DNA of 15,664 nucleotides. Source: a virus. Positions 12,001 to 15,664 of this stretch are shown here, piece by piece (the stretch's first letter is position 1; each line of letters begins with the position of its first letter). A program made the position numbers. Location of the stretch: the UHGV virus genome UHGV-1775322; one strand, written 5' to 3'.

Positions 12001-15000
12001 TTCTCCTTACGATCCCATGACTGATACTCTTCCCATGCACTCATCAACGGACTGGGCTGGCCTTCAGTAACCGTGGTATCGACAAAACCACGCCAGTCAT
12101 CAATGGCATAATCGATAACCTGAGCCATTCCCGGGAATGTGGCTTTTGCCTCATCGGTATCCATCCAGCGGCGGCGCATCAGCCAGCGGCAGTCACTTAA
12201 ATCAGCTTCCCGGCTGAGCCAGTCCCAGAACACTTCTTTCCGGCTGACAGTAGACACCTTAAACTCAGGCCCGAACGGATCGCTGTTCCGTCTGACCTCC
12301 ACCCAGCTGAGCCCCGCCTTGATTTGTTCCGCATAGGCATCAGAGCGGGCTTTATTCATATTGCCAAGGCGGCATGCATCGGCAAATTCAGCATTAATAG
12401 CTTCAGCCAGTTTTTCAGTTTCATCATCTGGTTCGTCTGACATCACCACCAGATCAGTCCGTGTTTTGGCCTCCATTCCCAGAACACCATCAACGGTAGG
12501 CGCGATGAGGTTATGGATAGTCATCGGCTGACCGCGATCTTTCAGTACCTGAAGAACTTCTGGTGGCAACTGGTCACCATCGTAATACGCACAGGCCTTG
12601 TTTGCGGCATCGCGCCATTTAGGCTGACTGTCAATATCAGAACAAAGCGCCTGTAACTGGCGCTGAGAAAAACGCGGCGTGGCTCCGTTGTCGTTTTTCG
12701 TCGCCATGGTATTAGTTTCATTTTTCATCAGTGAGCCATCCAGTGTGTGGTTCTGCGTTTATCCGTTTTCTGTCTTACCCTCACCGGCATTCTGGCGCGC
12801 ATCTCCTGGGCAATCATGTAGCTCATAAGCTGATCATCAAAACAGCCTTCCTGTGCATTCATGGAGCCTTTCGCGTCATAAACGTAGGTGTTCATTTCTG
12901 ATAATGTGCCCGTCCAGCGGATCCCCGACAGGCCGTTATTCAGCAGCGTTTTCATTCCCTCAGTCAGGACCGGTTTACTCTGGCGGGTTGTCAGCCAGCC
13001 AAGACGGGGCGTATCGTCGTCATATGCCTGGTCAAGGTGCTGTTCGTTGTAGATATAACGCGTCGGATAGAGTTCCCGGAGTTTCAGGATAACGGCATGT
13101 CCGTGATTGTTACGCTCCGGCCCCACAAACGCGTTGTTGTACATACGGCAGACCTGCGCAATGAGATGAGCGAAAAGCTCCGCATCGAGATGACCAAACC
13201 AGTGGGCTACCTGCTCACCATTACTACATCTGATGATATCCAGCGATGAGCGGTCTCCGTGCTCCAGCCCCTCAGCGGTATCCGCTCCGCATACATACTC
13301 TTCATCCGGATCTGGTAGCTCCCAGACCAGCAGATAATTCATCAGCGTCCGGTGCTGTTCGGCTTTATTCCCGTCACGCAGAGACTGCGCTTTGGTCTTC
13401 GTTCCTGTAACCGGTTCAATGTCATAAACAATCAGCGGTGGCGAACAGAATGACTCTGCCTGCAGCGTGCTTTCCGCACTGAACACCCGTCGTCCGGACG
13501 TCAGGAACGCCTCCTGTGGTGTTGAGGGAAACTCCTGCTTCATTTCCTCACGCTGTTCAGTTTCCTTGCAGATGTACCAGTGTTTCTGCTCATCGGTAAG
13601 CGTGATGTTCATTGCTTTTTCAACCGCAGAAAAATACGCTGTTTTTTCCCGTGACAGCTTAAGTCCGCTTTCCGGCACTCTGGCGCTGTATTTGAGATCC
13701 TGCCACCAGGCGTAAAAATGGAATTTATAATCCTGTGGCGTCAGCGCCAGCCCTGATGCAGTGATTTCCTGTGCCCGGTTACTCATCTCGTAAAAATCGC
13801 CACCCACACCTTCAGCAGTGGACTCATCAAAAATAATGCACTCATCAGAGACGGCATTAAGTGTACCGGTTCGCAGCTCTTTCGCCTTAGCCGGATATTT
13901 TGCGCAAATTTTGCCGTGCTCTGAGATATGCAGGCGCTGCACCGTACCTGAACGGAATGAGGTTGCCACCTGGATACTCGAGCCGTGCCCAAACAGGATA
14001 TAGCCACCGCTGGCTCCGCTACGACGTTCAACGATGGTGAATGAGGCTCTCAGCCAGTCAGGAAGATGATCAAACGGTACAGCAATTTTGGTGCGGAAAA
14101 TTTCACTGGCAGCCTGTTTATCCTGAGCGACAATCCCGCATTTGAGATGCGGTATGAATAATGCCTGGTCGAGAAGATAAATATCAATGGCCGTGGAAAA
14201 CCCCAGCTGGCGTGCTTTCAGGATAATATTTTTATTGTGCATGCTCCGGAACAACTGGCGCTGCGCCGGTCGCATTCTGAAGGTGACCAGCTCACCTTTT
14301 TCGTTCTGTATCTTGTAGAGATGATTGAGCCGCCACCAGGGATTGCTCAGTTTAGTCATGATGAACAGACGTTGTTCGGCCTCTGTCATTTCTGACGGTT
14401 CATCACATCGCGGTTCATTCTTCCGGAATGTCATCCAGTCTCCCCGAATTACTCATTTCATGCAGCGATGACACGATGTCACTGACAGGCGTAACAACGC
14501 CCCGACGCTGGCTGGTCAGAATATCGGTTTCCGCTCTGAGTTTATCTCTGGCAGCGTTGGTTCTTTCCCGGTCAGCACGAAGTTTTGGTGCTGTTTCAGC
14601 CAGAACGTCCAGCGTCAGCAATGAGCGTTCAATTGACTCGATACGGGCAATATTCCGGTCAAGAGCCTGTTCAGCTTTGAGTATTTTGTCGTACAGAGCA
14701 ACGCGGGTTTCCACGTCAGCCGCCTCTTTCAGGTCGGCGAACATTTTTTTCAGTGTTCCTGTTACTGAAAGTGCGCGGGCCCGGGTAAACACCAGTTCAT
14801 CGGCAAGTTCCATTCCGACTGCATCATCTATGAGGTTATCTGCCTCGAGATACTTCGCGTATCCACGGTGTCTGACGGCGTGGGTGTTACGCTGAGAAAA
14901 AGCATTTGAAGGTGGCAAAAGTCTGGAACCACGAGTCCGTTTCGTTTCTGCCAAATTTGCGCATTTTTCATCACAACCATCATCGCCTGAAGGCTCGTCA

Positions 15001-15664
15001 TGACTGGAGTTGCCGTCAGATTTCTGCGCACTTTTTTGATCATCAATTTGCGCATTTTTCTGCGCACTTTTCTCTGTATTTCTGGGGGAGTGTTTGCGCA
15101 GTTTAATGTACCGCCGAGCCGTGTCATAACTGATATTGTTCTGACGGCACCAGTCCTGAAGCTTTATGCCGGTTTTGACATGTTCGCGTCGAAATGCCTG
15201 CTCCAGCTTTTTCCAGTCCAGCTTTGCCATGTCACCTTCTGACGTTCTCTGTTAAAAACTGATGCACAATGACTGCTGTAAATTTTCAGATTTCACACAG
15301 CAGAGCCATGTCTGATTAATGTTTAACCTTATTTAGGTTATATCCGCTTCATTCCACTACAGCACCAGATAGGCTGCCTCGCGGATAAATGCCAAAGTCT
15401 CCTGATATAGAATCCCGTCGCCACATCGAGCGCTGATCAACATTTGTATATTCACTGCGACAGAAAGAATTTATTTTATTGAATAGTTAGAAATACAGAA
15501 TTGCATGCTTTATAAGCATTGACGCACACTTCATTTTTAGCAATATATTCTGTTCTCATAGACGATCAGCCCTGCATGCACTGCCGGACACCGATAATCA
15601 GTAAAACCACAGAAAGAAGTATTTTCTTTAAAAGAACAAATTTTCTTTTACACCTTTTTCTGTA

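Follow-up and report, generated by a model that had tools for sequence, protein, structure and literature searches.

A TGCGCA repeat array within the small terminase gene of a 933W-like prophage as a candidate packaging recognition site

UHGV virus genome UHGV-1775322 is a stretch of 15,664 nucleotides, analyzed here over its whole length and referred to below as the window. It represents the late (morphogenesis) region, encoded on the minus strand, of a non-Stx, 933W-like, Sepvirinae-type lambdoid prophage of E. coli, and its small terminase gene, terS, contains five closely spaced copies of the hexamer TGCGCA. We propose that these copies form an array recognized by the helix-turn-helix (HTH) domain of the small terminase subunit, TerS, and that the array constitutes the packaging initiation site (pac) of a 933W-type phage, as a GATC-free variant of the P1 type. 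Judging from sequence comparisons, we give this reading a probability of roughly 70%. We observe enrichment of the motif, selection at the DNA level, the place of the array relative to the HTH segment, co-variation of the repeated word with the third helix of that segment, and similarity of the TerS N terminus to that of PacA, the small terminase of phage P1. The original prediction, made from the DNA of the window, had called the array a candidate packaging recognition site, and it gains indirect support here from the HTH-adjacent position, from a repeated word that tracks the recognition helix, from the weak PacA similarity, and from the assignment of the phage to the 933W type of headful packaging.

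Enrichment of TGCGCA and selection on the DNA word

An exact-motif count places TGCGCA at 14958-14963, 15025-15030, 15049-15054, 15061-15066, and 15095-15100, that is, five copies in 143 bp (14958-15100) versus six in the remaining ~15.5 kb. The Poisson probability of finding at least five copies in 145 nt is 4e-9, or ~5e-7 when corrected for window number, and of 300 sequences simulated for the window with a first-order Markov model, only 1 had any hexamer reach five copies per 150 nt. T-rich runs flank each copy on the plus strand, corresponding to A-rich runs on the coding strand. In gene coordinates, the array occupies nt 131 to 273 of terS (codons 44 to 91). The predicted cluster of five copies in ~150 bp, with T-rich flanks and within the 5' third of the gene, is therefore found as described.

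Four of the copies (starting at 15095, 15061, 15049, and 15025, in the frames LRK, SAQ, NAQ, and SAQ) make up a proximal array at 15025-15100, the proposed TerS-binding part of pac, with the coding-strand consensus AAA[C/G]TGCGCA[A/G]A. A spacer of 61 nt (14964-15024), in which, by analogy with P1, the packaging cut may fall, separates them from the single distal copy (14958-14963), which is read as TGC GCA (Cys90-Ala91). A lone TGATCA (15037-15042), which is the hexamer of P1 pac and here encodes Asp-Asp-Gln, is situated between copies three and four. It provides the sole GATC, and thus the sole Dam site, in the array, and it is missing from PhiR12_3 at the same position.

Read in the gene, the five copies are CTG CGC AAA (L44-R45-K46), AGT GCG CAG, AAT GCG CAA, AGT GCG CAG, and TGC GCA (C90-A91). 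All three codon frames are used, and Ala-Gln is encoded by three of the five. Since the repeats extend across three frames, a peptide repeat cannot explain the copies in the window. The linker peptide given with the original prediction (KSAQKNAQIDDQKSAQKS) is correctly quoted, and the accompanying view that the DNA and protein repeats coincide holds for the three Ala-Gln copies but fails for the two in other frames (LRK and CA).

The word can be followed in homologous terS DNA gathered from phage records, four Salmonella assemblies, and 30 bacterial genomes representing other species. Together with the window, these yielded 27 non-redundant loci from Escherichia, Citrobacter, Brenneria, Serratia, Yersinia, Aeromonas, and Xenorhabdus, with the non-Escherichia genomes at 38 to 63% protein identity. 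Across the 27 loci, nt 101 to 320 of terS contain 159 TGCGCA copies (26.8 per kb) versus 45 (0.42 per kb) in the rest of the loci, a 64-fold difference. The 159 copies encode Ala-Gln (99 copies), Ala-His (18), [Val/Leu/Met]-Arg-[Lys/Asn/Ser/Thr/Arg] (31), and Cys-Ala (11). Within the array zone, Ala-Gln and Ala-His use the Ala codon GCG 120 times out of 130, and the base before that codon is T in 119 of the 130 (~92% each), versus 9 of 30 and 6 of 30, respectively, for the same dipeptides elsewhere in terS (20 to 30%). Among the remaining Ala codons, GCG accounts for 126 of 603.

Copy number ranges from 3 to 8 per locus and spacing is variable, with modal gaps of 9, 10, 12, and 14 nt followed by larger ones, and TGCGCA is kept even at 28 to 40% protein identity, a level at which the linker peptide is no longer alignable. 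Because frames, encoded residues, copy number, and spacing all vary while the hexamer and its codon bias stay, these comparisons strongly support selection acting on the DNA word as opposed to the encoded peptide or the distances between copies. The suggestion that the DNA-level constraint may be the primary one is thereby reinforced by the use of three frames, by the biased synonymous codons, and by the retention of the word at such low identity. Conservation of the spacing had also been offered as a yardstick; spacing varies among relatives in which the word is kept, and we judge it to be the wrong test.

On the coding strand, the copies share the consensus AAA[C/G]TGCGCA[A/G][A/T] and are all in the same orientation. 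As these flanks make the consensus asymmetric, the palindromy of the TGCGCA core is probably incidental. The arrangement of the copies also differs among lineages: members from E. coli, Citrobacter, and Yersinia artesiana (L037) show gaps of 51 to 91 nt between proximal and distal copies, PhiR12_3 has a layout of five plus two copies, and the relatives from Aeromonas, Brenneria, Serratia, Xenorhabdus, and most Yersinia carry a single cluster of 41 to 113 bp.

The terminase helix-turn-helix and the words that accompany it

An AlphaFold (AF2) model of TerS, built on a 20-sequence alignment, displays an N-terminal three-helix bundle, a disordered stretch at residues 45 to 119 (predicted local distance difference test score [pLDDT], ~30), and a confident long helical hairpin at residues 133 to 240. 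The bundle corresponds to a predicted HTH segment at residues 1 to 43 (15102-15230, minus strand), with helices at residues 6 to 20, 24 to 30, and 35 to 41 and a pLDDT of 86 to 89 for residues 11 to 40. Its helix 3 (codons 35 to 41, YDTARRY; 15108-15128, minus strand) is the predicted recognition helix, and three of its residues, D36, R40, and Y41, differ when the repeated word differs. The helices end at residue 41, equivalent to nt 123 of the gene, and the array, which opens with the final codons of the bundle, runs through the linker. When the N-terminal domain alone was modeled, the nearest folds in the PDB were all HTH DNA-binding domains (among them IstA, operator-bound DeoR, FapR, and a resolvase), every match having an E value above 0.1, as is usual in fold searches with a domain of 40 residues. 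The same search with the full-length model was uninformative, yielding only generic coiled-coil hairpins (for example, ESCRT-III and Vipp1), each with an E value above 0.1. From the model we propose that the linker may tolerate nearly any peptide, so that a DNA word could be written into it in any frame.

The TerS N terminus also resembles that of P1 PacA, with a BLASTP E value of 7e-5 (24% identity over 209 residues) and an hhalign probability of 76% for the HTH (E value, 2e-5; residues 5 to 49). PacA in turn matches phrog_370, the family of the window TerS, with an E value of 1.9e-4.

Helix 3 and the repeated word change together. The helix ARR[YH]IK goes with TGCGCA in the window and in most relatives. 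In the Shiga toxin (Stx) phages P13374, phiSTEC1589-Stx1c, and vB_EcoP_phi315 and in a 933W (EDL933-Stx) record, ARTRIK is paired with one to seven copies of (C/T)GATCAT, encoding Asp-His with a 12-nt period, and ARTQIK in Salmonella with (T/C)GATCA at an exact 12-nt period. Further pairs are SAKRYITIK with TTCGCA[A/G] in two frames (Pectobacterium and Brenneria) and AKRYIK with TGCGAAT (a Yersinia phage), and unrelated HTH segments accompany GTACGCA in Klebsiella phage Chronis and CCGTCC, together with inverted copies, in a Salmonella variant.

Among 120 listed homologues, the 96 with ARR[YH]IK have a mean of 3 to 4 A[QH] dipeptides and ~0.5 D[HQ], and the 10 with AR[TI][RQ]IK have a mean of ~4 D[HQ] and zero A[QH]. 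The pattern recurs in 40 independently collected, non-redundant IMG/VR loci: the hexamer that ranks first is TGCGCA for 22 of 23 ARR[YH]IK loci, GATCAT or CGATCA for 14 of 14 ARTRIK loci, and TGCGAA for both AKRYIK loci; for the two main helix types, the expected hexamer is thus on top in 36 of 37. It is also seen at the protein level in 147 cluster representatives. In a close Salmonella pair of TQ versus RY type, 6 of 46 N-terminal residues differ, 5 of them in helices 2 and 3. A stronger argument than this co-variation is that each word is held in multiple copies and in multiple frames inside its own clade.

The combination of HTH and array is also attached to TerS bodies that are unrelated, and it occurs in a Vibrio phage (28% identity), each time with 4 to 8 TGCGCA copies in several frames, which suggests that the module may move between terminase families.

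Several further observations concern the module. In E. coli and Klebsiella phages (L045, L046, and L047), a Yersinia phage (L048), and Vibrio phage douglas 12A4 (L051), the HTH and array are fused to a different TerS body, for example, one with a "LTDQQRLFVAEYL" second domain. Two Salmonella terS genes of the GATCA type (L039 and L040) keep the first TGCGCA (CTG CGC AAA, Leu-Arg-Lys; gene nt 131) at the end of the HTH, and the leftover TGCGCA copies in GATCA-type Salmonella alleles and in Stx-type alleles look like mosaic remnants or mixed-word sites. Lastly, in four proteins of 565 to 733 aa (P0131, P0138, P0141, and P0193), 7 to 11 separate stretches match the 50-residue HTH profile, apparently as tandem HTH copies.

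We further put forward, as a tentative idea that we would rate somewhat short of even odds, that the N-terminal HTH and its array together make up a portable, self-specifying "pac cassette." Several features would fit such a cassette: it is found grafted on unrelated TerS bodies and PacA of P1 contains a relative, several resets have given it different words (TGCGCA, GATCA, TGCGAA, and TTCGCA, with GTACGCA or CCGTCC beside other HTHs), each with a few substitutions in helices 2 and 3, and different resets coexist in one cell. The last point is illustrated by the 2011 outbreak lineage, with its two 933W-like prophages: E. coli O104:H4 FWSEC0009 (NZ_CP031902.1) carries the window TGCGCA allele at 2556713-2557598 (non-Stx) and the P13374 GATCAT allele, in an Stx2a phage, at 3288603-3289502. 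Two terS matches per genome are also present in 2011C-3493, C227-11, and HUSEC2011, and in each case one match shows 100% identity to the P13374 (GATCAT) allele. The two O104:H4 933W-like prophages may accordingly differ in packaging specificity to the point of being orthogonal. Were the cassette idea true, co-resident prophages would have orthogonal packaging identities, and only the GATC-type alleles would be under Dam control.

Genomic setting, proposed mechanism, and competing explanations

The terS gene (14415-15230, minus strand; 271 aa) was predicted to encode the small terminase, and this identification is confirmed by a match to phrog_370, "terminase small subunit," over residues 1 to 271 (E value, 1e-117) and by its place directly upstream of terL and portal, as a 933W-type small terminase requires. 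The large terminase gene terL (12728-14434, minus strand; 568 aa) matches phrog_2 and phrog_24361 (terminase large subunit) and is followed by a P22-like portal gene (10584-12728, minus strand) and a capsid gene (8182-9396, minus strand), giving the order terS-terL-portal-capsid. The start of terL overlaps the stop of terS by 20 nt (14415-14434), which is typical of translationally coupled terminase genes. No Pfam model, including that of the P22 gp3 family, is matched by TerS, nor is any matched by TerL, and a sequence search of the PDB returned nothing meaningful. The terS segment of the window is 98.9% identical to that of phage GER2 (Sepvirinae), and the gene is 100% identical to a "terminase"-annotated gene of E. 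coli O104:H4 FWSEC0009; the segment matches an stx-less prophage at 100% identity both in that strain and in FORC_069. Approximately 430 complete E. coli genome records contain the terS gene.

The window also contains tail-fiber genes, among them one at 4128-6032 (minus strand), in which TCACCT reaches 6 copies per 150 nt and GGCCCT and CCCTGC reach 5. These are ordinary protein-level tandem repeats: the clusters, at ~4450-5340, derive from collagen-like Gly-X-Y repeats and are unrelated to the array.

As for how this family packages its DNA, 933W is a generalized transducer whose virion DNA has been interpreted as terminally redundant (PMC3752737). The TerL of 933W defines a "headful (933W type)" class (PMC7317114). 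The literature library searched yielded no mapped or proposed pac site for 933W-type phages and no paper with "TGCGCA" in a relevant terminase context.

In the proposed mechanism, several HTH domains of a TerS oligomer would bind the four proximal copies and the distal one, on phage DNA that is either concatemeric or still integrated. Bound TerS would then recruit TerL, which would cut nearby, possibly in the 61-nt spacer, and headful packaging would proceed after this cut.

A number of points weigh against this proposal. Binding of TerS at the array, the position of the cut, and the role of the array in packaging are all things that we infer. With regard to helical phasing, the spacing of the copies gives only broad peaks near 8.5 and 11.5 to 12 nt, and 20 of 1,000 jittered controls reach the observed value. 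The association between helix and word could be partly plain linkage or shared descent, the helix and the array being adjacent. The similarity to PacA is weak and confined to the N-terminal ~45 to 100 residues, with the TerS body beyond residue ~100 unrelated, and TerL displays no BLASTP similarity to the P1 large subunit PacB. The PacA helix, ARRYLR, is paired with TGATCA, so there is no simple helix-to-word code across families. A consensus scan for integration host factor (IHF) sites (WATCAANNNNTTR, at most one mismatch) found none in 14237-15664, a stretch covering the array and the 5' part of terS, whereas P1 has such a site. Two distal TGCGCA copies are present in PhiR12_3 and in Stx-type phages, in the latter despite their proximal GATCA, and it is this Stx-type case that is difficult for the proposal. 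Finally, the one PhageTerm run that we came across for a 933W-like phage gave the class "Mu-like," with host DNA at the termini and no pac mapped (PMC7946995), a result that also fits in situ headful packaging.

The competing explanation that survives best, and which we nevertheless regard as unlikely, is that the sites bind TerS or another phage protein for a role other than packaging, such as autoregulation of terS and terL or a roadblock to late-operon transcription, with the pac cut made elsewhere. The DNA-level selection and the co-variation with the HTH would fit any function that depends on TerS binding. A promoter-like match (15127-15100, minus strand) adjoins the first copy, touching it by one base, A15100, and two of the copies build a terminator-like hairpin (15049-15066, plus strand); however, matches of both kinds are no commoner here than in shuffled sequence. 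To our knowledge, a TerS HTH has no role beyond recognizing packaging DNA, and this counts against a regulatory function, as does the fact that the P1 array, which is of the same kind and in the same position, is pac itself, P1 being the sole relative with experimental data (PMC10028697).

We consider it quite improbable that the array is instead the target of a host factor or a modification system or an RNA element in the late mRNA. TGCGCA is indeed palindromic and contains GCGC, and two copies can pair into a hairpin. As an RNA, however, the array region folds in a manner that is not unusual (z = -1.03), with 34 of 200 shuffles folding at least as well, and the motif taken with its flanks is asymmetric and same-oriented. 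Sister clades moreover use the non-palindromic words TGCGAAT, TTCGCAA, and GTACGCA, which change with the phage HTH and not with the host, and a single host strain has both the TGCGCA and the GATCA types.

Hardly credible, lastly, is an array that arose as a by-product of a slippage-prone, low-complexity linker (Ser/Asn-Ala-Gln-Lys) with no function in the DNA: although three of the five copies encode Ala-Gln in a repetitive disordered linker, a 12-nt tandem unit is detectable in the region, and copy number differs between alleles as slippage would give, two window copies lie in other frames, relatives swap AQ, AH, xR[KNST], and CA yet keep the hexamer, GCG and its preceding T are far more frequent here than elsewhere in the gene, and the word persists where the linker is unalignable.

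If the array is pac, as we favor, the start of packaging would be predicted in hundreds of Stx and Stx-like prophages, together with the direction and origin of lateral transduction of the flanking chromosome. Phages of the 933W type are both carriers of Shiga toxin genes and generalized transducers. The different alleles would provide natural matched pairs of helix and word for studying how small terminases read DNA, and those with and without GATC would make the role of Dam in packaging control directly testable. In practical terms, arrays of ~150 bp could serve as tags for packageable plasmids, and synonymous recoding could yield non-packageable prophages, as has been done for P1.

Comparison with known packaging sites

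The original prediction had drawn on P22, whose pac is a single ~22-bp asymmetric site. Phages of the P22/Sf6 type and the window have in common a headful phage with a P22-like portal and a pac, or proposed pac, inside terS. They differ in that the window carries an array of hexamers in place of a single site and that its TerS falls outside the P22 gp3 family of Pfam. We therefore set P22 aside as the comparator; the hexamer-array pac of P1 fits better. For the E. coli LF82 phage "Gally," a pac peak within terS has been reported (PMC9928086). Gally was considered as a carrier of the same module and ruled out, its TerS being an unrelated 140-aa protein.

In the cosB site of lambda, the elements R1 to R3 are bound by the winged HTH of gpNu1, together with IHF. 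The likeness to the window lies in several short elements for a TerS HTH beside the cut site and in a specificity that resides in the N-terminal HTH of the small subunit. Lambda is, however, a cos phage with cohesive ends whose R elements lie upstream of Nu1, whereas the window elements are inside the coding sequence and the 933W type is headful.

Much closer are the classic Stx phages (933W, P13374, and Sp5-like), which carry a sister terS allele with the same gene, position, and architecture and share the distal TGCGCA. In the Stx allele, the proximal part consists of one to seven (C/T)GATCAT copies at a 12-nt period and the helix reads NTARTRIK, versus DTARRYIK in the window. In the individual Stx-type genes (L004, L007, P0012, P0068, and P0079; gene nt 142 to 190), the GATCAT unit is present in 1 to 7 copies at 12- or 24-nt steps, and every copy contains a Dam site, as in P1 pac. 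In one Stx2a prophage (L050; Stx2a_JNE090861, LC727854.1, at ~nt 1378) and six siblings (H79-H85), terS breaks off directly behind its third GATCAT copy, leaving a product of 59 aa. The adjoining sequence (TGAACCGCCCCGGGTTTCCTGGAGAGTG...) looks like the end of an IS3-family (IS629-like) element, and Stx2a prophages with this 59-aa terS should be unable to package.

The closest parallel is the pac of P1, known from the work of Sternberg and Coulby (1987 to 1990) and Skorupski et al. (1994), a segment of 161 bp within pacA that contains seven TGATCA/G hexamers in two groups (HEX4 and HEX3), with cleavage between the groups; synonymous mutation of these hexamers cut the P1 titer ~9-fold (PMC10028697). 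According to the annotation of NC_005856, TGATC[A/G] occurs at nt 194, 201, 213, and 228 and at nt 324, 336, and 347 of pacA (with another at 375), and both the IHF site (nt 256 to 268) and the cleavage points (nt 276 to 285) lie between the hexamer groups. The P1 hexamers occupy two frames and are encoded in ...IIDHSNDQHAGDH..., giving Asp-His and Asp-Gln like the Stx-type arrays.

P1 and the window thus each have an array of one hexamer within the small terminase gene, just 3' of the HTH segment (nt 194 to 352 of pacA and nt 131 to 273 of terS), with copies in more than one codon frame inside a non-conserved linker. The P1 order of HEX4, spacer, and HEX3 may have its counterpart in the four proximal copies, the 61-nt spacer, and the one distal copy of the window, and the sister Stx-type arrays complete the resemblance with a GATC word encoded as Asp-His or Asp-Gln, as in P1. 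The difference lies in the word, TGCGCA as opposed to TGATCA/G, and since it is without GATC, control by Dam methylation is not expected. By these sequence features, the array of the window appears to be of the same design as P1 pac, written with a different word.

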